Positions 1,144 to 57,804 of a stretch of 64,000 bases of DNA are shown here, one piece after another. The translations under genes and the position numbers were made by a program. The notes beneath the pieces were generated by a model. It made no database searches and had not been told where the DNA came from. It worked only from the letters and a program-made list of their open reading frames with translations. The DNA is from Lentisphaeria bacterium (GTDB taxonomy: Bacteria; Verrucomicrobiota; Lentisphaeria; JABSQK01; JAWLHB01): NCBI GenBank assembly GCA_041690595.1, contig JAWLHB010000003.1, forward strand, positions 186,001 through 250,000. Direction: 5' to 3'. Each line of letters starts with the position of its first letter. Positions within the stretch are counted from its first letter, which is position 1.

Positions 1144-1502
1144 TGGTGGAGGCGGGGGGAGTCGAACCCCCGTCCTAAGCAAGCATGACGATAACTTCTA
1201 CACGTTTAGTCTGCCTTTAATTGCTTATCGTCTCTCCACCTGTCAGCAGACGGGGCCAGCTTTGAGACTAGGTTTCTGTTGTTTTGCCTGTCACCCCGAA
1301 ACCGTGAGTGTCAGACTATCCCGATGAAAAACGCCTCTATCCCATATCGGGCGTCAAAGTAGAGGCGTCGCTGCAACGTTAGGCAGCGAGTGCGAGTTCA
1401 GTGTTCGCAGTTACTTGTTCGGCCGACTGATTAACGAGGCCAACGACCATCCTCGACGTGCCACTATCGCATCACTCACCCAGTCGAAGCCATTTCGCCC
1501 CC
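1144..1502 (-). ncRNA. ssrA: tmRNA (SsrA); tag ORF 1408-1379 encodes ANTELALAA*
   Basis: 5' GGGGGCG pairs with 3' CGCCUCC-ACCA including the G3.U wobble; T-arm GGTTCGACTCC; resume context GTAACT-GCG; tag ends LALAA-TAA. Confidence 0.97.
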
Positions 1503-14900: not shown

Positions 14901-16697
14901 TCAGGCAAATCCAGCCTCATCCATCTTAATACGGTGCAGACTGCTCGAGGTGGCAATGGTGTAGAGGCGGTGAAAGAGCCCGTTCATCGCCAGCAACTCC
15001 TCGAAACTACCCTCCTCGACAAGTTGCCCCTCATCGAGAACCAGTATCCTGTCTGCCTTGCGAATGGTACTGAGCCTGTGGGCGATGATGATGGCGGTAC
15101 GATCGACGAAGAGCGCCTCCATGGCGCGCTGGACCAGCGCTTCCGTCTCATTATCCAGGGCCGAGGTGGCTTCGTCCAGCACCAGAAGACGTGCCTCGAG
15201 CAACATGCAGCGGGCGATGGCCAGCCGCTGCCGCTGACCGCCGCTCAATCGCGAGCCCGCCTCGCCGATTTCGTGGTCGATGCCCTCGGGAAACTGGCGC
15301 ACGAAATCGGCCGCGCATGCGCGTTCCAGCGCCTCCCACAGCGTGGCATCGCTGGCGCCTGGCTTCACCACTCGCAGATTGGCTGCCACGGTGTCGTTGA
15401 AGAGGTAGGGATCCTGCAGCACCACCCCGAACTGCGCCCGGTAGTCGCGCAACGGCAGAAGTCGGATGTCCGTGCCGTCGAGCGTTATCCGGCCTGTATC
15501 GGGATCATAGAAGCGCATCAACAGGTTGGTAATGGTGGTTTTTCCTGAACCGCTTCTGCCCACCAGCGCGATCTTCTGACCGGGACGAATGGTCAAATCG
15601 AGCTGTCGCAGGACGGTCCGATTGGCATAGGCGAAGGAGACGTTCTCCAGCACCAGCTCGCCTCGTATGGAGGCCGGCAGCGCTGCGCTTGGCTCATCGA
15701 CAACCGAGCTGTGGGTATCGAGTATCGTGTACAACTGATCAAAGCCGGCCCGTGCCACGGAGTACTGGCCGTAGACATTGGTCAACTGAACCGTAAAGGA
15801 GATGAACTGCCCCTGATAGCCGATGAAGGCGATGAGGGTGCCCAATGGCATATCCTGGCGCAGGATGGCCCAGATGCCGACCACATGGACCGCCGCGGTG
15901 ATCAGATAGCCGACCCCCTCCGAGGCGAAACCAAGCTTGAGCATCTCCCGCTGAGCGCTGATCCATTTCACTTTCGTCGGCTCAATCCTCGCCTCGAAGT
16001 CCTTCTGCACTTCTTCTTCCAAGGACAATGCCTGCACGGTCTTGGTCCCCCGCAGCTTGTCGAGGATAAACGAGTGGATCTGCGTATGAGCTTCGTTGGC
16101 AGCCAGGGATTTCTGGTGAATCCGCGGCGACATCCGGCGGCTCACCAGAACGTAGACAAGCGCGCACACCAACAGCAGCAGCGTCATCGGCACGCTCAGA
16201 TAGAAGCAGGCCGCCAGCGAGAAGAGCAGCCCTGATGCATAGACGGTCAAGTTCGAGAGGATCAAAGCCAGGAAGCTGCCGATGCTGCAGATGGAGCGCT
16301 CGAAGACGCGATCATGCAGATATCCCGATGGATAGAGCCCATGGAAACGCATGCAGAGCCGCTGCAGGTGCCGGAAGCCCTGAACACGAATGGCGTAGAT
16401 GACGTCCTCACGTATTCGCAGCAGCAGGTTCTGCGCCCTGAACCACAAGACCATACGCAGCCCCTGCAGCAGGAGAAAGAGGCCCATGGCTCGAACGGCC
16501 AGATCGAAGCGCTGTTGTGGAATGGCGACATCGACCACGTATTTGGTGAAGAGCGGAATGACCGACATGAAGATGCCGACTATTGCGATAAGGCCGGCCG
16601 CCATCGCGATGCCTCGCCGATACGGCCGCACGACGGGCCATAGCCGCGCGGCAATCTCGCGCGTGCCATAATGTCGAATCTCATTTGCGTCATTCAT
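14901..16697 (-). CDS. ABC exporter, fused permease/ATPase (MsbA/MdlB-like)
   Basis: 6-TM domain; GRSGSGKT, LSGGQRQR, LVLDEATSALD, IAHRLST; GGAGG before ATG 16697. Confidence 0.92.
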   Translation of the reverse strand: MNDANEIRHYGTREIAARLWPVVRPYRRGIAMAAGLIAIVGIFMSVIPLFTKYVVDVAIPQQRFDLAVRAMGLFLLLQGLRMVLWFRAQNLLLRIREDVIYAIRVQGFRHLQRLCMRFHGLYPSGYLHDRVFERSICSIGSFLALILSNLTVYASGLLFSLAACFYLSVPMTLLLLVCALVYVLVSRRMSPRIHQKSLAANEAHTQIHSFILDKLRGTKTVQALSLEEEVQKDFEARIEPTKVKWISAQREMLKLGFASEGVGYLITAAVHVVGIWAILRQDMPLGTLIAFIGYQGQFISFTVQLTNVYGQYSVARAGFDQLYTILDTHSSVVDEPSAALPASIRGELVLENVSFAYANRTVLRQLDLTIRPGQKIALVGRSGSGKTTITNLLMRFYDPDTGRITLDGTDIRLLPLRDYRAQFGVVLQDPYLFNDTVAANLRVVKPGASDATLWEALERACAADFVRQFPEGIDHEIGEAGSRLSGGQRQRLAIARCMLLEARLLVLDEATSALDNETEALVQRAMEALFVDRTAIIIAHRLSTIRKADRILVLDEGQLVEEGSFEELLAMNGLFHRLYTIATSSSLHRIKMDEAGFA

Positions 16698-16894
16698 CGA
16701 ATGCGACTTACCTCCTGAACTTTTCCGCAACTCCCACCATGATCCCGTGCTTGAGCTTAGCTTTTCTTCATTCGAATACAATTCACGCACGGCACAATTT
16801 GGTCACCCCGCAAGATCAGCTTTCCCGTTTGCTTTCGCGCGCGGTCAGGCAATAGTTATGGCCCTGCCATCGTGAGCTGCAACTGGAGGGATTC

Positions 16895-26600: not shown

Positions 26601-27050
26601 TCAGGGAGTGGTGTCTTTGGTCTGCAGCAGGACGCTGGCGCCGTACTTTCGGCTGATGGACATGATGCGGGCCACGTCGCTGTAAGGTGCATCGGCATCC
26701 GCCTTGACGAGGATAATCGGCCGCCGCGAGACTTGTTCCTGGCCTTCGGCTTCGCTACCGCCGCTGAAGCTGTAGACGACGGAACTGAGCGTGTTCTCCA
26801 GATCGTTGAAGCCATCCACCTGTTGATCGTTGAAGTAGAGCAGGTTGTTCTTGGTCAGGGAAATCACCAGCTTGTCGGCGAAGCCGAAGTCGGGTTCCTC
26901 GACGGAGGGCAGGTCAACGGGAAGTCCCTGTTGAAAGACCAGGGAACTGCCGACCATGAAGAAGATGAAGAGGAGGAAGAGCAGGTCAAGGAGCGGCGTC
27001 AAGGTCAGGTTGATGCCGTCGGGCTTCGGGAGCCTCGTCTTGAGGCGCAA
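26601..27050 (-). CDS. exbD: ExbD/TolR biopolymer transport protein
   Basis: TPLLDLLFLLFIFFMV, LPVDLP, ILVKADADAPY; TTG start assumed. Confidence 0.88.
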   Translation of the reverse strand: MRLKTRLPKPDGINLTLTPLLDLLFLLFIFFMVGSSLVFQQGLPVDLPSVEEPDFGFADKLVISLTKNNLLYFNDQQVDGFNDLENTLSSVVYSFSGGSEAEGQEQVSRRPIILVKADADAPYSDVARIMSISRKYGASVLLQTKDTTP

Positions 27051-27063
27051 TCCAATATACGGC

Positions 27064-27735
27064 CTACTTGCCGCGGGCGCTCTGATGATCGTTGTTGGCA
27101 TCGGCATTCTGCAGGGTCAGTGGGTGTTCGACGAGGAAGTAAATGATCTCGGCGGAAGCTTTTTCCATGTCGAGGAGAATACGTTCGATCTTGGAGACGA
27201 AGTACTGGTAGAAGCCGTAGGCGATGATGCCGACGACAAGTCCGAGAGCGGTGGTGAGGAGTCCCTGCCAGATGCCTTCAGCGAGCTGTTTGGTTTCGAT
27301 GAAGGAGCCGGAAGCTTCCATGTTCTGGAAAAGGGTGATCATGCCGATGACGGTGCCCAGCAAGCCGAGGAGCGGGGCGAGATGGGCGATGGCGATCAGG
27401 GGCTTCATATTGCGCTCGAGGCGTGGGATCTCGGAGAGGCAGGTCTCTTCGACGGAACGCTCCATCTGATCGCGGCTGCGATCACAACGGGTTATGGCCG
27501 ACCGGATAACGTGCGCCACCGGCCCGGGTGTGTCATCACAGATACTGATGGCCTCCAACACATTGCCGCGCCGCAAGACATTGATCACGCCGCGGAGGAA
27601 CTCGCGAACGTCAATCTGAGCCCGATGCAGATGAAAGGCGCGCTCGAAGATGATGAAGAATGAGATGAACGCAAGCACGAAAATGATCCAGGAAACCGGC
27701 CCGCCCTGGATAAGCAGCTTCAATACAACCGACAT
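27064..27735 (-). CDS. exbB: MotA/TolQ/ExbB proton channel protein
   Basis: APLLGLLGTVIGMI, LAEGIWQGLLTTALGLVVGI. Confidence 0.9.
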   Translation of the reverse strand: MSVVLKLLIQGGPVSWIIFVLAFISFFIIFERAFHLHRAQIDVREFLRGVINVLRRGNVLEAISICDDTPGPVAHVIRSAITRCDRSRDQMERSVEETCLSEIPRLERNMKPLIAIAHLAPLLGLLGTVIGMITLFQNMEASGSFIETKQLAEGIWQGLLTTALGLVVGIIAYGFYQYFVSKIERILLDMEKASAEIIYFLVEHPLTLQNADANNDHQSARGK

Positions 27736-29712: not shown

Positions 29713-32700
29713 CTACTCGCCGGTGGGCGGGGCAGGCAACTCCACGCCCTGCAGGAATTGCTGCATGCGAGGCTGACGCAGCGCCAGGTCGACCCGTCGC
29801 AGGGCCAGCTCGAGAGTCTGGTTGATAATGTCGTAGTAGTGTTCAGTATGGAAGAAGAGCTTCGCCACGTCTGCATCGACGAGGTGGGTCTGGTTGGGGT
29901 CGACTTCGGGGACGAGCACGATTTTGCCGACACTGAACTGATCGAGTTCCGGCTCGGAGTCGCCGAAGTTCAGCATCATCATCTGCTTGAGAATAATGGC
30001 GCGCCGCAGTCGAATGAGGTCATCGCGGTTCTGGATGAGGATGGTGTAGTGCTGCATACCTTCGCGGGTTGTCTGGTTGAGATTCCAGAGCAGCGTTCTC
30101 CAGGCGTCCCGATCGGGACAGGCCACGACCTCGACCGCGGGAATGGGCTCGCTGATCAGGCTGCCCTGCTGCAGACGCTGCCGGTCGTAGCTGAACGTGA
30201 CGGCCAGAGCGCGGTCCTTGTGCAATGCGAAGAAGCTCATGGGATCCGTGCCGTCGCCATACTTCGCCAGGGTCTTGTCGAGGAACTCGACACCATAGCC
30301 GCCGGCTTCCTTGCGATCGAGGAAAAGCATCTTGTCCCACTCGATCATTTCATCGACACTCAGACGCTTGATGATGTCGTAGGTCATGCGATGCACCAGG
30401 ACATGGGCACCGGGTATCCCACCTCCGGCAAATTCCCGGAATGGCGTTTCATCGGCCAACAGGACATTCTGGCGAACCACATGCTGCACGAGTCCGCGAT
30501 AGCGCTGCAGGCGCTGATTGCCGGAGAGGAAGTCGAGATCGTATACATCTTCGGCGCGCAGCCGATAGAAATCGCGGAAGAGCATCTTGCCAAAACTGTC
30601 GAAGCGATCTTCGTCCTTTGGCAGCGAGCGAGCCACGTAGTGCTCGGTCGGCAGAATATAGGGGGTCAGGACAATGATCACCTCGCGCTTGGAGATCCTG
30701 TCCTTGGAGCTTCGGAAGGCGGGGCCAAGCCACGGCAGGTCGCCGAGAAAGGGTACCTTGTCAATGGCGGTGGACGTTTCGCGACTGACCAGTCCGCCAA
30801 CGATGAAGGGGGTATTGTTGGCAATGCGCGCATAGGTCTGGACCCGGCGGATGGAGATGGTGGGGGCCTGGGCAAGAAGGTTGCCATCGGTGTCGCGGAT
30901 CTGCAGATCCTCGCCGGCCACGGTGGCCGAGACCGTCGTATCCACCAGGAGGCTGACGTTTCTGCCGTCCTCGGACATGCGGGGGCGTATGTTGAGCAGG
31001 ATGCCGGTGGGAATATAGTGGAAGGTGAAGGAGAGCTTGTTGTTGTTGGCGACGGTACCGCTGGTGGCGATGGGCACATCCCGGCCGACGCGGATGGTTG
31101 CCTGCCGGTTGTCGAGGGCGAGTACGCTGGGGCGGGAGAGCACTTCGGCCTTTCCATCGCGGATCAAGGCACGCAAGGTGGCTCCCCAGTCCTTCGTGAA
31201 GTTGTTGCTGAGGGCATAGTCGCCGGTCAACGTACTGGTGGTCAATCCTTGAAGAATGCCACCGGCGGTCATGCGCCAGTTCGCGTTCTGAAAGAACCAT
31301 TCCACCCCCAGCTCCTTCAGGCCATCCTCGCTGATTTCAAGGACCAGCCCTTCCACGAAGATCTGCCTGGCTGGAATGTCGACAATCTGGCGAATGGCAT
31401 TGTGCACCCGGGTCAGTTGATCGGGAAAGGAAGGATGGTAGAAGATCAGCAACTGGCTGGTGGGCGAACCAATCGTGTCCGGCGGCAACTTGCTGGCGAC
31501 GCTGGGAATAAGAGTCATGCCGAGTGTGCTGCGGTCAACCTGCTGCTCGCCGACCAGCCCGACGGAGGCATCGTTGAGTGGAGGCATGCGAACGACCACG
31601 GGGAGCTGGTGGAAATCGACGTCGGAGCTGACGGGATCGCTGTCAGCCAGTGTCATGAAGCCAAGGCGCCCCAGCGCTTTCATGGCGTTGGCACTGTCGA
31701 TGTAGCTGAGATTGAGGACATCGACCTGCAAGTCCTGCCAGGCGATATAGGATTGCTGCGCACCGCTGCGAGCATCGATGACGCCCTGCGCCACCGCCAC
31801 CACGTCGTCGACCTCCTGAGCCGCCGCCAACTGGCCGCCCTGCTCCACGACTCCCTGCAGCCACAGGTTTGGCGCTTGCGTAAGCGAGCGGGTGTAGCCA
31901 ATGCGGAGCCAGCGAGTCACGCCGTCGAGCGAGCGCTTTAGTGTCTTGACACCTTCTATGCGCGGCGGAACCTGCGGTAATTCATCCTCTCCCGGGCGGG
32001 AGAGCCGATATCCTTGTTCCGTCGACAGCTTCAGCAGAAGATTGCCGATAAGCTCCTCGATTTCAACCTTGCGCATACTGGGAAGCTCGAGCAGGGAACC
32101 CGAAATCTGATCATTGTGCGCCAACGCATGCTGAGCGTAGAGGCTCTCGTCATAGCTCTCCAAAGGGGCGGGAGCCGGCACATCGCCGGCGCCAAGGCGA
32201 CGGGTGGATGATCGAGCCGCATCGATTGCCCTGGCCAGCTCATCCAGTTCGGGTAACTGATCGCCGGTTGCGACCCATCCGGCGCTCGCCTTGGGTTCCT
32301 CGAATTCGATGGACTTGGTGGTGCGAGGTTCCATGGAGCGACACCCGGTGGCAAGCGTAGCCGCAACCATCATCACCGCGGTGAGAACGCGCAGTCCGGC
32401 CCATACCGCATCGGAAGAAGTCGTTGACGCAGGGCTTTGGGGCTTGAAGGGAACGGCTTCATCATCGGCCCGTTCATTGCGAGTGGTGGGGGCCTTGCCC
32501 AGATACTCTTCGCTGGAGCCGTCGAACGCCACTTCACCATGTTGAATGTGCAGCACCCGATCTGTCATCCGAATGAGATTGCGCTCGTGAGTGATCATGA
32601 TCAACGTGCTCGACCTCATGTAGTTGGTGATGGCATGGACAACCTCTTCGGACGACTCCCTGTCAAGGGATGCGGTAGCCTCGTCAAGGAGCAGAATTCT

Positions 32701-34215
32701 GGGTCGCTTCAGCAGGGATCTGGCCAGGGTGATGCGTTGCTTTTCGCCGCGGCTGAGTTCGACGCCAGAGGTACCGATCTGGGTCTCATAGCCATTCGGC
32801 AGACGGGCAATGACCTTGCCGGCGCCGCTGATGCGGCAGACTTCCCGGATTTCATCCATGGTGGCATCTGGTTTGGCGTAACGAAGATTCTCATAGATGG
32901 TGGTGTTGAAGAGAAAGACCTCCTGAAAAGCAATCCCCACTTCGTTGCGCAGGTCCATGGTCGGCAGTTCCCTGATCGGTTTTCCATCTATGCGTACCGT
33001 GCCACTGGTGGCTTCCAGGAAACGCGGGATCAGGTACGCCATCGTGCTCTTGCCACCGCCACTGGGCCCCACCACGGCCACATGCTCGCCCGGTTCGATG
33101 GTGAAATGTACATCACGCAATACCGGGTCGCCATCCGGATCATAGGTGAAGCTGACGTTTTCGAAAGCGACACCACCACGAAAGGGGACAGGCATGGCCA
33201 CATCCGCCCGACGCCCCGTGAAGGCCAAGACGGGCTCCACCAGCAGCTCGAGCACCCTATCAACGCTGGCAGTCGTCTTGGAGAGATAGCTGGTGCCGCC
33301 CATCACCTCGACTACTGCCGGATAGAGCATGCCGACATAGCCGAAAAACATGAAGAAGGTGCCGGCGCTCATGCCATTGCGGACTTCGAGTGCGCCAAAG
33401 CCGAGGAGAAAGACAGTTCCCGCGCCAATCAACAGATCCGCGATCACCTTCTGAATGAAGTGCAGTCTCTGCGTTTCAATCTGGCTTTTGCGACTGCGAT
33501 CGATGTTGCGGTCGAAGATCTGTGTTTCGCGTTCTTCGGCCGCAAAGCCCTTGACCACCTCGATGCCGAGAAAGCGCTCGATAAGGTCACCGTAGGCACT
33601 GGCCAGATTCTCCTGGGTCTCCGACTGGCTCCGCCGCATGGAGCGTTTAAAGCGGTAATAGGTGACCAGATGAAGGGGCAGGACGATGGTACTGGCAAGG
33701 GCCAGACGCCAGTTGGTCGTGTAGAGGACCACCAGCAGTATCTGCAACATGAGGACGTTCAGCAGGAAGGTCGGAAACTTGTCTTGGATGAAGGACTGGA
33801 TCTTGAAGGTGTCGTCCATGACCCGGGACGCCACCTTGCCTGGCTGATTAGACTTGTAGTAGTTGAGGCTGAGCTGCTGGAGATGCTCGAACAATTGCCG
33901 CCGCATGCGAAAGCAGAGATCCTCGCTGACTCGCACGGAGACCATGCGGCTCGAGAAGAAGAGCAGGTTGCGGACGAGGTAAATGAAGAAGAGGGCCGGG
34001 AGAATGAGCCAGAGGAGGTTCCAGTTGCCCAGATTGGTCTCGGTGGGGAAGACTTCATCGATCATCAACTTGATGGTGAACGGCAGGGCCATGTTGGTCG
34101 CCGCCAGTACCGCCAGGAGAAGAACGACCAGGGCGAGTCGCCAGGAGTAGGGTCGCATCAGCGCGATGAGACCACCGTTGCTCCCCTTCTCGCTCTTCGG
34201 CTGTTGCTCCTCCAT
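29713..34215 (-). CDS. Fusion protein: ABC exporter TMD+NBD / internal lipoprotein-like signal / secretin (GspD/PilQ family) / unknown C-terminal domain
   Basis: GPSGGGKST, LSRGEKQR, LLLDEATASLD, ITHE; LATG-C625; QIFVEGLVLEI, LSRPSVLALDNRQATIRVG, GGLV, KVPFLGDLPWLGPAFRS, VLTPYI. Confidence 0.85.
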   Translation of the reverse strand: MEEQQPKSEKGSNGGLIALMRPYSWRLALVVLLLAVLAATNMALPFTIKLMIDEVFPTETNLGNWNLLWLILPALFFIYLVRNLLFFSSRMVSVRVSEDLCFRMRRQLFEHLQQLSLNYYKSNQPGKVASRVMDDTFKIQSFIQDKFPTFLLNVLMLQILLVVLYTTNWRLALASTIVLPLHLVTYYRFKRSMRRSQSETQENLASAYGDLIERFLGIEVVKGFAAEERETQIFDRNIDRSRKSQIETQRLHFIQKVIADLLIGAGTVFLLGFGALEVRNGMSAGTFFMFFGYVGMLYPAVVEVMGGTSYLSKTTASVDRVLELLVEPVLAFTGRRADVAMPVPFRGGVAFENVSFTYDPDGDPVLRDVHFTIEPGEHVAVVGPSGGGKSTMAYLIPRFLEATSGTVRIDGKPIRELPTMDLRNEVGIAFQEVFLFNTTIYENLRYAKPDATMDEIREVCRISGAGKVIARLPNGYETQIGTSGVELSRGEKQRITLARSLLKRPRILLLDEATASLDRESSEEVVHAITNYMRSSTLIMITHERNLIRMTDRVLHIQHGEVAFDGSSEEYLGKAPTTRNERADDEAVPFKPQSPASTTSSDAVWAGLRVLTAVMMVAATLATGCRSMEPRTTKSIEFEEPKASAGWVATGDQLPELDELARAIDAARSSTRRLGAGDVPAPAPLESYDESLYAQHALAHNDQISGSLLELPSMRKVEIEELIGNLLLKLSTEQGYRLSRPGEDELPQVPPRIEGVKTLKRSLDGVTRWLRIGYTRSLTQAPNLWLQGVVEQGGQLAAAQEVDDVVAVAQGVIDARSGAQQSYIAWQDLQVDVLNLSYIDSANAMKALGRLGFMTLADSDPVSSDVDFHQLPVVVRMPPLNDASVGLVGEQQVDRSTLGMTLIPSVASKLPPDTIGSPTSQLLIFYHPSFPDQLTRVHNAIRQIVDIPARQIFVEGLVLEISEDGLKELGVEWFFQNANWRMTAGGILQGLTTSTLTGDYALSNNFTKDWGATLRALIRDGKAEVLSRPSVLALDNRQATIRVGRDVPIATSGTVANNNKLSFTFHYIPTGILLNIRPRMSEDGRNVSLLVDTTVSATVAGEDLQIRDTDGNLLAQAPTISIRRVQTYARIANNTPFIVGGLVSRETSTAIDKVPFLGDLPWLGPAFRSSKDRISKREVIIVLTPYILPTEHYVARSLPKDEDRFDSFGKMLFRDFYRLRAEDVYDLDFLSGNQRLQRYRGLVQHVVRQNVLLADETPFREFAGGGIPGAHVLVHRMTYDIIKRLSVDEMIEWDKMLFLDRKEAGGYGVEFLDKTLAKYGDGTDPMSFFALHKDRALAVTFSYDRQRLQQGSLISEPIPAVEVVACPDRDAWRTLLWNLNQTTREGMQHYTILIQNRDDLIRLRRAIILKQMMMLNFGDSEPELDQFSVGKIVLVPEVDPNQTHLVDADVAKLFFHTEHYYDIINQTLELALRRVDLALRQPRMQQFLQGVELPAPPTGE

Positions 34216-34364
34216 ACCAAATCCGCCACTAGGCTTTACATACTTGCCGATCCGCTATCTTGTCATAAGACTTTGAGCCTTGAGACCCCACGCTTCGCCG
34301 TAGGTTCGCCATGACGAGCTTCTTTTCCTATCAACTTTGGCTGCATTCGAACAAGCGCAGACAT

Positions 34365-34443
34365 GACGCGGGGACGCGGGGACGCGGGGACACGGGACGC
34401 GGGGACGCGGGGACGCGGGGACGCGGGGACGCGGGGACGCGGG
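34365..34443 (+). repeat. Tandem 8-bp repeat (GACGCGGG) x10, one 7-bp variant
   Basis: Direct reading: 9 perfect units plus GACACGG at 34389-34395. Confidence 0.95.
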
Positions 34444-34467
34444 GATCACGCAAATCAGGGCCCTCCC

Positions 34468-34995
34468 TCACAGATCTCTCGCGGCTCCGATGAGGGGCTT
34501 GTATTCCAGACGTAAAGAGCACCCGTCGGCAGATCCCGACTTACTGAAGTTACCAATTAGCTCAAGAAGACGAGCTGCAGGATATTGTGATGAGAAACGA
34601 ATGGAAAACATTAGACAAAGCTTGATAAGTAGGCCAACGTCACCTTTAGCAACAAACTGAACCATGGCAGGCAACCCGCGAACATAAACTCTTTCTAACG
34701 TTATTTTTCGGCGAATAACGATCCATTTAAGCAAGAAGCAGCATAGTTCCAAATCCCCTGTTCTCTTACTGAGAATCAGCTTTCGCCTCGGTATTAGAAA
34801 TAACGCGGCCAGAATAATTGCTAAAACGGAAATGGACAAACAAAATGAATACCATTGATCATCCATCAAGTAGCGCCTATCCAGCTTATAGGCAAGATAC
34901 CACATAAAGATGGATAGGAAAATTGACAAAAGACAACAAACGTAGTTTCTTTCTGTATAGATAGTGAATATACTTTCTCCTTCTTCCATATGCAT
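34468..34995 (-). CDS. AT-rich hypothetical membrane protein
   Basis: 175-aa ORF, two N-terminal TM, visibly lower GC than flanks, AAGGAG upstream. Confidence 0.6.
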   Translation of the reverse strand: MHMEEGESIFTIYTERNYVCCLLSIFLSIFMWYLAYKLDRRYLMDDQWYSFCLSISVLAIILAALFLIPRRKLILSKRTGDLELCCFLLKWIVIRRKITLERVYVRGLPAMVQFVAKGDVGLLIKLCLMFSIRFSSQYPAARLLELIGNFSKSGSADGCSLRLEYKPLIGAARDL

Positions 34996-35037
34996 TAAAA
35001 ACCGCTCCTTATCGACCGTCCCCGTCTTGCCCTTGCC

Positions 35038-35724
35038 TCAGTTCACTTGCGTAATGGCGTACACCAGAGCTGGAGTTTGGCGGCCAGCCCCAAACAGATA
35101 AACCGCATTGCCGATGAAAAGCTGGTAGAAGTCGTGTGGTGAGGGTTCAGGATCTCCAGTCAAGCCGACTTCCATCTGTGGCGGCGCTCCTTGCACGGTT
35201 TCAAACTCAATACTACCGTCAACCTGAAACAGAAAGTACATGGGGTCATGTGCGTCGTAGCTTTCGGGGCTTTCATCTTCCAAGATCCACGCTGGCCCCC
35301 CGCCAACTTGTCCTATTCTGTGTTTGGAATCGGCTCGTTCCAAGCAGATGGGGCGGAACCTGACGCGCTCTTGATATTGACGGACAAGCTGACCTTGGGC
35401 TGTCTCAAATACAACGAAGTGGAAATTCAGTTGGTAGACGTTGAGGAAATTCGCCGGAATGTCTGCACCAGTGAGAACTCCGGAAAGCATTTCCGGAATG
35501 AGGTGGTTTTTGTCTGCACAGCTCGTGCAGGAAAAAACGGCCAGTGAAAGGCCGGTCCAGACATGATCGTCGGGGAAGGCAACTTGAAGGAAGAAGGTCT
35601 GCTCAGCGCGACATAAAGCACATTTCGGAATCGCATTCCCTCTGGGCAATACAGGCTTGCCGCCAACAAAACAGGCTTCGTCCCCCGTTTGCTGCCCGTC
35701 AGTGAGTATCATTGAGGAGCCCAT
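35038..35724 (-). CDS. Putative immunity protein (YwqG/DUF1963-like)
   Basis: VGGKPVLP..IPKCALC...TFFLQV and second half VGGGPAWI...FLFQV; directly downstream of a toxin remnant. Confidence 0.6.
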   Translation of the reverse strand: MGSSMILTDGQQTGDEACFVGGKPVLPRGNAIPKCALCRAEQTFFLQVAFPDDHVWTGLSLAVFSCTSCADKNHLIPEMLSGVLTGADIPANFLNVYQLNFHFVVFETAQGQLVRQYQERVRFRPICLERADSKHRIGQVGGGPAWILEDESPESYDAHDPMYFLFQVDGSIEFETVQGAPPQMEVGLTGDPEPSPHDFYQLFIGNAVYLFGAGRQTPALVYAITQVN

Positions 35725-35730
35725 ACTACC

Positions 35731-35950
35731 TCATGGATTGGCGAATGCCTGGATGACCGTTCGACCCTTGATGCGAGCTTGGCAACACGTACGAAGACTT
35801 CATCACCAGCGCTGCACAACATGCAATCTGCTGCTCAACTGACTGAACGAGCTATGGCTAGCACTGGGTGCTTGCGGGAAGATGTTTCCCCCTTCGGACT
35901 CCTTCAAGACCGCCTACCTCCGTCCGACCGCAAGGTGCAATGCGTCATCA
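35731..35950 (-). pseudogene. Degenerate C-terminal tip of a DNA/RNA non-specific endonuclease toxin
   Basis: Pieces DDALHLAVGRR*, GNIFPQ, EQQIA, AGDEVFVRV, RIKGRTVIQAFANP* spread over three frames with stops. Confidence 0.62.
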
Positions 35951-36079
35951 GCAATGTCAAGCTGCTTTGCCGCGGTAGCGATTTTCTGATGTGGCGGACA
36001 TCGTTCTCTGCGATGCTTGCCTGTCGACCGCCGTGGCTGCATCAGCAAGATTCACCGGACTCCCGCGCCCCGATTAGCC

Positions 36080-57259: not shown

Positions 57260-57804
57260 GGGTTGGGGGCGCTCTCCGTCTGCGCTTCCAGTCGCGGCTC
57301 ATGCTCCGGCCGCAGAAAGGAGGAAAGCAGGTAGATGCCGACACCGATACAGATGGCGGAGTCGGCAATATTGAAGGCCGGCCAGTCGTAGGTGATCAGC
57401 CGAAAACTGAGGAAATCGACCACGCCGCCGTAGAAGAGGCGATCAATCAGATTTCCCACAATCCCACCAAGGATCAGGCTTATCGCCACGCAGCGCTCCG
57501 TCCAGTCAGCCGTCATGCGCCCATAGAAGAAGGCCACGATGACGAAGACGACAGCGGAGATCAGGGCGAGCATCTCCGTATGGTCAGCAAAGATGCCCCA
57601 GGCAGCGCCAGGATTCTTCACGTAGACCAGATCGAAGAAGCCGTGTATGACGGAGATGGGCAGCCGATGCTCATGCGCCATCGTCAGATGCTTGGTAGCC
57701 TGGTCGAGGGCGACGATGAGCACGGCGGTAAGCAATGGGAACTGCCACACGCGCCGCCATGCCATCGGTGCTGAGCCGCGCGCGGGTTGTGTAGCAGATT
57801 CCAT
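57256..57804 (-). CDS. lspA: Signal peptidase II
   Basis: LDQATK, NPGAAWG, GNLIDRL, VVDFL, FNIADSAI; start uncertain. Confidence 0.95.
   Translation of the reverse strand: MESATQPARGSAPMAWRRVWQFPLLTAVLIVALDQATKHLTMAHEHRLPISVIHGFFDLVYVKNPGAAWGIFADHTEMLALISAVVFVIVAFFYGRMTADWTERCVAISLILGGIVGNLIDRLFYGGVVDFLSFRLITYDWPAFNIADSAICIGVGIYLLSSFLRPEHEPRLEAQTESAPNP

Follow-up and report, generated by a model that had tools for sequence, protein, structure and literature searches.

A conserved natural fusion of an ABCB-type exporter with a lipoprotein secretin suggests a dedicated export pair in Phycisphaerae and some other bacteria

Analysing a 64,000-nucleotide stretch of the genome of a Lentisphaeria bacterium (GTDB lineage Bacteria; Verrucomicrobiota; Lentisphaeria; JABSQK01; JAWLHB01; GenBank assembly GCA_041690595.1, contig JAWLHB010000003.1, positions 186,001 to 250,000 of the forward strand; hereafter the window), we characterized a single gene that joins an ATP-binding cassette (ABC) exporter to an outer-membrane secretin. 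This fusion is genuine and conserved, and its exporter and secretin are evolutionarily locked together. With a probability slightly above one half (about 0.55), we interpret it as a natural fusion of an ABCB-type half-transporter and a lipoprotein secretin that would be cut at an internal signal and act as a dedicated export pair. Strong genomic evidence suggests a function shared by the two parts outside the classical type I and type II secretion systems (T1SS and T2SS). Secretins are the outer gates of T2SS, type III secretion systems, type IV pili and filamentous phages, where they are driven by hexameric or phage ATPases, and ABC exporters reach the outside through TolC. A sequence-only reading that preceded this work knew of no characterised protein combining the two, and in the literature that we searched neither an ABC exporter fused to a secretin nor a pairing of the two was described.

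The gene (P0001) reads without interruption on the minus strand, the plus-strand translation being ridden with stops (Table 1). The open frame of 1500 codons, the six-helix exporter followed by a nucleotide-binding domain (NBD) with all its motifs, and the secretin core at about aa 950-1185 described in that earlier reading were confirmed, the strand being minus, by Pfam domains and invariant motifs for the exporter and by NCBIfam GspD (aa 937-1189) and Pfam Secretin (aa 1016-1188) matches for the core. Absent from it were a helix bearing a lipobox, a secretin N-terminal region of ~390 aa and a conserved domain of ~310 aa past the core.

The exporter part displays the full set of ABCB-type (type IV fold) features, with a six-helix transmembrane domain and an NBD carrying Walker A, signature, Walker B-Glu and H-loop. 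Across 63 aligned fused relatives, the Walker A residues G383, S385, G386, G388 and K389, the signature LSRGE (S488, G490), D511 of Walker B with its glutamate E512, and H543 of the H-loop were all invariant. Its closest solved chains were the halves of ABCB1 and ABCB19, Sav1866 (4e-95) and MsbA (4.5e-73), and neither a C39 peptidase/CLD nor an accessory domain was present, as in a plain ABCB exporter. Among NCBIfam models, the first 575 residues were nearest to MsbA-like and other ABCB-type exporters and aa 937-1189 to GspD, every match of the fused protein scoring under its curated cut-off. An identity as the MsbA lipid A flippase (TIGR02203) was rejected, with a score of ~350 bits (353) against a cut-off of 602 and a rank of 9 among 16 in its own genome. 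Fifteen other ABC exporters of this genome are 24-33% identical to the fused one; in the window itself, a second, ordinary ABCB-type exporter open reading frame (ORF) of 629 aa lies at 14901-16790 (-), with 29% identity. When ABC parts, grouped by gene context and not by identity, were placed in a tree together with these 15 paralogs and with three ABC genes of the loci that are unrelated, the 58 secretin-coupled exporters all fell on one side of a branch with a support of 100. Secretin-coupled exporters are thus one dedicated clade, apart from the 18 other ABC exporters.

The secretin part belongs to the secretin superfamily (PF00263), with a domain matched over profile positions 1-168 of 169 at 132.9 bits, above the cut-off of 27.5, and a ring-building N-domain predicted from the structural model. 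Sequence matches to solved secretins were limited to the N3-plus-core region, the T2SS secretin GspD being the best (5wln, 3.7e-30). The region ahead of it gave no Pfam match at E up to 10, and its AlphaFold model (aa 626-1015, monomer, pLDDT 76.8) resolved three parts, namely a linker, a helix-grip domain and an N-domain. The linker, of ~75 aa after Cys625, is of low confidence and bears a conserved motif right behind the Cys. The helix-grip domain (BamC-N or Bet v 1-like, aa 700-822) was matched to BamC by Foldseek with a probability of 0.96-0.99 and by VIA to 1vjh (Z 8.6) and to BamC-N 2laf (Z 8.4, root-mean-square deviation (rmsd) 3.1, 95 aligned). For the N-domain, VIA returned the periplasmic domain of EscC (3gr5, Z 7.7, rmsd 2.4, 68 aligned) and the N-domain of XcpQ (4e9j, Z 6.7, rmsd 1.9, 60 aligned, 20% identity). 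Because these Z values are middling, we use both fold names tentatively. An N0 domain was not recognised in the secretin part.

Past the core, the last 312 residues form a domain (C-domain) modelled with high confidence (monomer, pLDDT 88.8, pTM 0.85), for which no known fold was assigned with confidence by Foldseek against the PDB (best E 0.16), VIA (best Z 5.0) or the ESM Atlas (no usable match), and for which Pfam at E up to 10 returned only a chance-level PIF6 (0.19). Resemblances to LysM (VIA Z 5.0, 48 aligned) and GGDEF (Z 4.7) were too weak to name the fold. The LysM-like piece, a beta-alpha-alpha-beta arrangement with a large insertion (model residues ~26-61 and 244-250, that is aa 1214-1249 and 1432-1438), has 25% identity to a Thermus LysM domain, likewise too weak, and would fit peptidoglycan binding. 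The C-domain was found in 290 representatives after clustering at 50%, in each case as the C-terminal part of the chain, and the proteins checked also carried Secretin (26 of 26 and 15 of 15); the genome of the window holds a single copy. Some relatives add SPOR, AMIN, CBM9 or Cds6_C NTF2-like domains to this secretin and C-domain scaffold (P0145, P0233, P0182, P0211, P0224), with SPOR placed after the C-domain and AMIN at the N-terminus. The SPOR and AMIN domains, which bind peptidoglycan, and CBM9 would fit a periplasmic location of the C-terminus. A helix-grip domain, a single ring-building N-domain and a C-domain of 310 aa without confident fold set this secretin apart as a distinct subfamily.

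The fusion is not confined to the Lentisphaeria genome. A search of 5.8 billion protein clusters yielded 548 relatives, and 100 of the 120 best carried ABC and Secretin in one chain (1214-2037 aa); the remaining 20 were secretin-only proteins of 905-964 aa, matching the last 59% of the query. Fused clusters come from NCBI, JGI, ENA and Logan, some of them from megabase-sized contigs. The closest relative, at 60% identity, is fused, and among these best 120 clusters the fused state reaches down to ~40% identity. Named sources of the relatives are metagenome-assembled genomes (MAGs) of Phycisphaerales, Phycisphaerae or Planctomycetota.

Scanning one genome per species gave 80 loci, and a phylum sample supplied more; most loci come from MAGs, with organism labels that may be erroneous. 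ORFs were read from stop to stop and all trees were built with FastTree. In the phylum sample, 12 of 401 genomes, and none of the four genomes of the same order, held a match at E <= 1e-30, so that the gene is patchy in its distribution. Gene context was classed for the 89 rows of the secretin tree, 17 of which were on contigs too short and 72 readable. The exporter was fused to the secretin in 24 rows, directly upstream on the same strand in 35, directly downstream in 3 and not in reach in 10; exporter and secretin are therefore fused or directly adjacent in 62 of the 72 readable rows, in either gene order. The sequence-only reading had accepted that it would fall if all homologues proved to be split, which is not what we observed (the fused form is seen in 24 of 72 readable loci and in 100 of the 120 best clusters). 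Long contigs, such as a 3.9-Mb chromosome (L013), also hold fused copies, and because the same fusion recurs in other assemblies, an artefact of one assembly is very unlikely. On the unrooted secretin tree, 33 upstream-split loci form one clade and the fused state is scattered, with at least five changes forced by well-supported branches; fusion and fission are not distinguishable as the direction of change on such a tree.

The junction between the two halves appears to be an internal lipoprotein-type signal peptide. A Pro/Ser/Thr-rich linker and an Arg lead to a hydrophobic core (aa 603-621) and then to the lipobox L-A-T-G-C, ending at Cys625 (codon 32341-32343). The mark of an HxcQ-like liposecretin, a lipobox Cys directly before the secretin, is thus present, with the signal internal and not N-terminal. 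Among the 100 fused proteins, 95 have K or R ahead of the core, 68 have [GAS]C after it and 30 of the other 32 carry a strict [AVSGT]xA[QEA] site, typically AxAQ. Three control helices of the same proteins gave far lower counts (0-4 of 99 for [GAS]C and 1-11 of 99 for the strict AxA-type pattern); a looser AxA-type pattern was unspecific, with 26-96 of 99 at the control helices, and the strict one was used. All 20 split secretins considered begin with a lipoprotein signal, and the genome of the window encodes both Lsp and Lgt. Its only signal peptidase II (Lsp) match is at 57316-57726 (-) of the window, ~23 kb from the fused gene.

Of the 100 fused forms, 98 conserve a signal-peptidase site, which makes two mature proteins likelier than a single chain, cleavage being suggested by this motif conservation. 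The "one-gene secretion system" of the earlier reading is upheld as a genuine, conserved fusion of coupled parts and disfavoured as a single chain. The fusion would have arisen when a split pair was joined by read-through into the signal peptide of the secretin, the peptidase site having been kept since; read-through is topologically allowed, as the end of the NBD and the start of the signal peptide are both cytoplasmic. As a natural example of a signal peptide lying inside a bacterial fusion protein, the fused gene is unusually clean.

Table 1. Features of the fused gene (positions in the window; aa, residues of the predicted protein).
Feature	Positions	Strand	Evidence or remark
Whole gene (P0001)	29713..34215	-	1500 codons + stop; architecture shared by 100 of the 120 best clusters
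ABC exporter transmembrane domain, aa 28-297, six helices	33325..34134	-	Pfam ABC_membrane E 5.9e-40; hydrophobic segments
Nucleotide-binding domain, aa 366-515 (Pfam)	32671..33120	-	ABC_tran E 1.6e-29; H-loop His543 just outside
Junction, aa 576-625, predicted internal lipoprotein-type signal peptide	32341..32490	-	Motif counts, control helices
N-terminal part of predicted mature secretin, aa 626-822	31750..32340	-	AlphaFold model pLDDT 76.8; Foldseek; VIA
Secretin ring-building N-domain (predicted), aa 824-951	31363..31746	-	VIA against EscC and XcpQ
Secretin core, aa 1016-1188	30652..31170	-	Pfam Secretin E 1.1e-38
C-terminal alpha/beta domain, aa 1189-1500	29716..30651	-	No Pfam family; pLDDT 88.8; hallmark of the secretin subfamily

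From these features, the following sequence of events can be proposed. The ABC part would insert into the inner membrane, and the seventh helix, the former signal peptide of the secretin, would take the secretin part into the periplasm, where Lgt and signal peptidase II would lipidate and cleave the chain at Cys625. Cleavage would yield an ABC exporter dimer, with a short helix left as a stub at the C-terminus, and a free liposecretin, the latter moving to the outer membrane and multimerising as described for HxcQ. The exporter would then move its cargo from the cytoplasm or the inner membrane, and the secretin would serve as the exit through the outer membrane. The type of the exporter, close to Sav1866, MsbA and ABCB1 and lacking a peptidase or accessory domain, suggests that the cargo is more likely an amphipathic small molecule, a lipid-linked glycan or a peptide than a folded protein. 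A dedicated two-part export route is the most economical reading of the locus, in which the coupling is well supported and docking, cargo and direction are what we infer.

The surroundings of the gene were scanned for components of known systems. No T2SS part, membrane-fusion adaptor or TolC was found among 31 neighbouring ORFs. The nearest T2SSE match on the contig lies 173 kb from the fused gene, whereas GspE-type ATPases are encoded at 1-10 kb from three of the genome's five other secretin ORFs. TolC-like (OEP) genes of this genome are on other contigs only, and none of its eight MacB_PCD matches, indicative of MacB-type pumps, is near one of its other secretins. None of the 13 neighbouring ORFs tested recurs in related loci.

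Partners of other kinds recur in parts of the family. In the split clade, an S8 protease is encoded upstream in 18 of 30 loci with enough flank, as opposed to 0 of 15 fused loci, and a 1500-aa protein combining GT1, methyltransferase and GT2 domains is encoded directly downstream in 12 of the 25 whose flank is sufficient here, as opposed to 0 of 17 fused loci; this giant glycosyltransferase is not in the window either. As both genes are confined to the split clade, they were rejected as a third component, and these neighbours hint at a glycan link for that clade alone. In this Phycisphaerales clade (for example at L028:2294-5344 and L031:11562-16142), the upstream subtilase bears a P-domain, and methyltransferase and ABC-2 genes are found farther on.

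Where the secretin has no ABC neighbour, a gene for an MscS-type channel lies directly downstream of it in 6 of 10 loci classed as "none" and in 4 of 9 classed as "unknown", counting those with enough flank. Such MscS genes are seen in L064, L066 and L072 (at about 10.6-12.0 kb) and in L091 (10487-12016), a separate branch in which the MscS gene also encodes a cyclic-nucleotide (cNMP)-binding domain and shares an overlap with the secretin gene at the latter's end. Near the secretin of L054, L064, L066 and L072 is also encoded an 820-aa protein joining NMT1-like and TrkA/RCK domains. Betaproteobacterial members, from MAGs labelled Usitatibacter, Burkholderiales and Oxalobacteraceae, have their secretins near fusion proteins of 800-850 aa with a major facilitator superfamily (MFS) domain in the C-terminal half (L082:11495-13891, L083:8522-11083), and L083 also has a DUF3943 protein nearby.

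Several observations weigh against a cleaved, dedicated export pair. A third component or cargo gene conserved with the pair was looked for in the related loci and none was found. Ten loci hold the secretin without an ABC neighbour, and among five genomes without ABC partner that were searched, four had only ABC exporters 28-31% identical to the query and one had none at the threshold used, so that the secretin can work without the exporter. A 1050-aa protein from an Acidobacteriota MAG (P0237) consists of a cNMP-binding domain (aa 35-114), a signal-like helix ending in SVAAQP and a secretin with the same C-domain; this second kind of cytoplasmic domain joined to the secretin would fit a tethered regulator as well as a cleaved one. 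To our knowledge, bacteria offer no precedent for the cutting of an internal signal by signal peptidase II. Finally, the at least five changes that the fused state needs on the secretin tree imply that the covalent link may itself be advantageous.

This last point, together with the persistence of the fused state to ~40% identity, speaks for an uncut chain, in which the seventh helix would tether each secretin subunit to an ABC half-transporter and form a single-gene machine across both membranes, as the sequence-only reading taken literally would have it. The ~75 poorly structured residues after Cys625 could span the periplasm, and the cNMP-binding fusion would suit direct signalling along the chain. 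However, a tether has no use for a lipobox Cys or AxA site, which nearly all fused forms nevertheless keep and control helices far less. ABC exporters work as dimers, whereas secretins number 12-15 chains per solved entry, an awkward stoichiometry, and the clade of 33 split forms functions without any link. We therefore regard the uncut machine as unlikely, yet as the main rival of the cleaved pair.

It is also improbable, at odds somewhat longer still, that no export link exists and that the secretin acts autonomously as a channel of the outer membrane, such as a duct for solute or osmotic release, with the ABC part aiding its biogenesis or merely co-regulated. Such a channel would agree with the ABC-less loci and the lack of an exporter ortholog in the genomes searched, with the MscS-type genes downstream of the secretin, including that of L091, and with the MFS fusion proteins near the betaproteobacterial members. 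A Myxococcus secretin paralog, Om031/Mxan_3106, which is a possible relative of the present subfamily, is moreover reported to act in osmoregulation (PMC12475490). Against this, most readable loci keep the ABC part fused or adjacent and the coupled ABC parts form one clade, which is more in keeping with a working partner than with a helper. An autonomous duct whose inner-membrane partners can change is in any case compatible with the export pair. As for a lost stop codon or frameshift that joined two genes during sequencing or assembly, its probability is close to nil: split forms with abutting or overlapping genes are common, so that a single base error could mimic a fusion, and public contigs (three runs of one study, small shares) are indel-free over 31900-32345 and leave 32346-32520 at the junction uncovered, but the closest relative and 98 further listed clusters are fused alike in independent assemblies, the 3.9-Mb chromosome among them, with a frame open on both sides of the junction and a sequence conserved throughout.

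If the export pair is real, a conserved and dedicated association of ABC exporter and secretin would be a new wiring of known parts among envelope-spanning systems, and a specific, testable export route for Planctomycetota, a group with a poorly understood envelope biology. A broader proposal, which we put forward tentatively and at somewhat less than even odds, is an undescribed two-part pathway in Phycisphaerae and some other bacteria, in which the secretin would stand in for TolC and the adaptor of an ABCB-type exporter. The subfamily with its own C-terminal domain would then serve as a modular outer-membrane duct, attached in different lineages to ABC exporters, MscS channels or MFS proteins of the inner membrane; in the boldest form of the proposal, the fused chain would remain uncut and span both membranes. 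Structural work could directly target the C-terminal domain, with its 290 cluster representatives, and the helix-grip domain.

Elsewhere in the window, the segment at 34001-36000, just upstream of the fused gene, has a GC content of 0.52 against ~0.60 elsewhere, and the minus-strand ORFs at 34468-34995 and 35038-35724 have neither a Pfam family nor a counterpart in related loci. An ExbB/ExbD-type proton-channel pair (26601-27735, minus strand) lies 2 kb downstream of the fused gene and is not conserved beside its relatives; YggS, DciA and phosphoribosyltransferase genes stand between them. The sole Rfam match in the window is a tmRNA gene at 1144-1502 (-) (RF00023, 187 bits).

Compared with known systems, the fused gene combines familiar parts in an unfamiliar way. 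Like GspD of T2SS, its secretin has a full core, closest to GspD among solved chains, and one ring-building N-domain; an identity as a T2SS secretin was rejected, as TIGR02517 (GspD) scored 162.5 bits against a cut-off of 351.35 and no GspE-type ATPase or platform genes stand among the 31 ORFs scanned around it. T1SS and tripartite ABC efflux systems (HlyB-HlyD-TolC, MacAB-TolC) similarly pair an ABC transporter with a dedicated outer-membrane channel, whereas here the channel is a secretin and not TolC, no adaptor is adjacent and the exporter is a plain ABCB one. Like the homodimeric exporters Sav1866, MsbA and TM287/288, the exporter part has six helices and an NBD with all catalytic motifs, and unlike them it continues into an extra helix and a secretin at the C-terminus of the fused protein. 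Filamentous phage export is another minimal secretin system, with an inner-membrane ATPase (pI/pXI) that acts directly on the pIV secretin without being a GspE-type hexamer; unlike the present one, pI is no ABC exporter, the pIV chain was matched weakly (7ofh, 1.3e-13) and no phage genes are nearby.

The closest parallel for the junction is HxcQ of Pseudomonas aeruginosa, a liposecretin with a lipoprotein signal and Cys (PMC3230066). The secretin of the fused gene shares this signal with its Cys, placed internally in contrast to HxcQ; it differs from both GspD and HxcQ in the lack of GspE/F or pseudopilin genes nearby and of a recognised N0, and from the solved secretins matched in its helix-grip domain and its 310-aa C-terminal domain. 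Lastly, GspD/PilQ secretins are presented in PMC12475490 as polysaccharide nozzles in cyanobacteria and myxobacteria. These nozzles set a precedent for non-protein secretin cargo and, unlike the present secretin, are T2SS GspD/PilQ proteins. The possible parallel is the giant glycosyltransferase encoded after the secretin in 12 of 25 split-clade loci, a neighbour that the fused loci (0 of 17) and the window lack.

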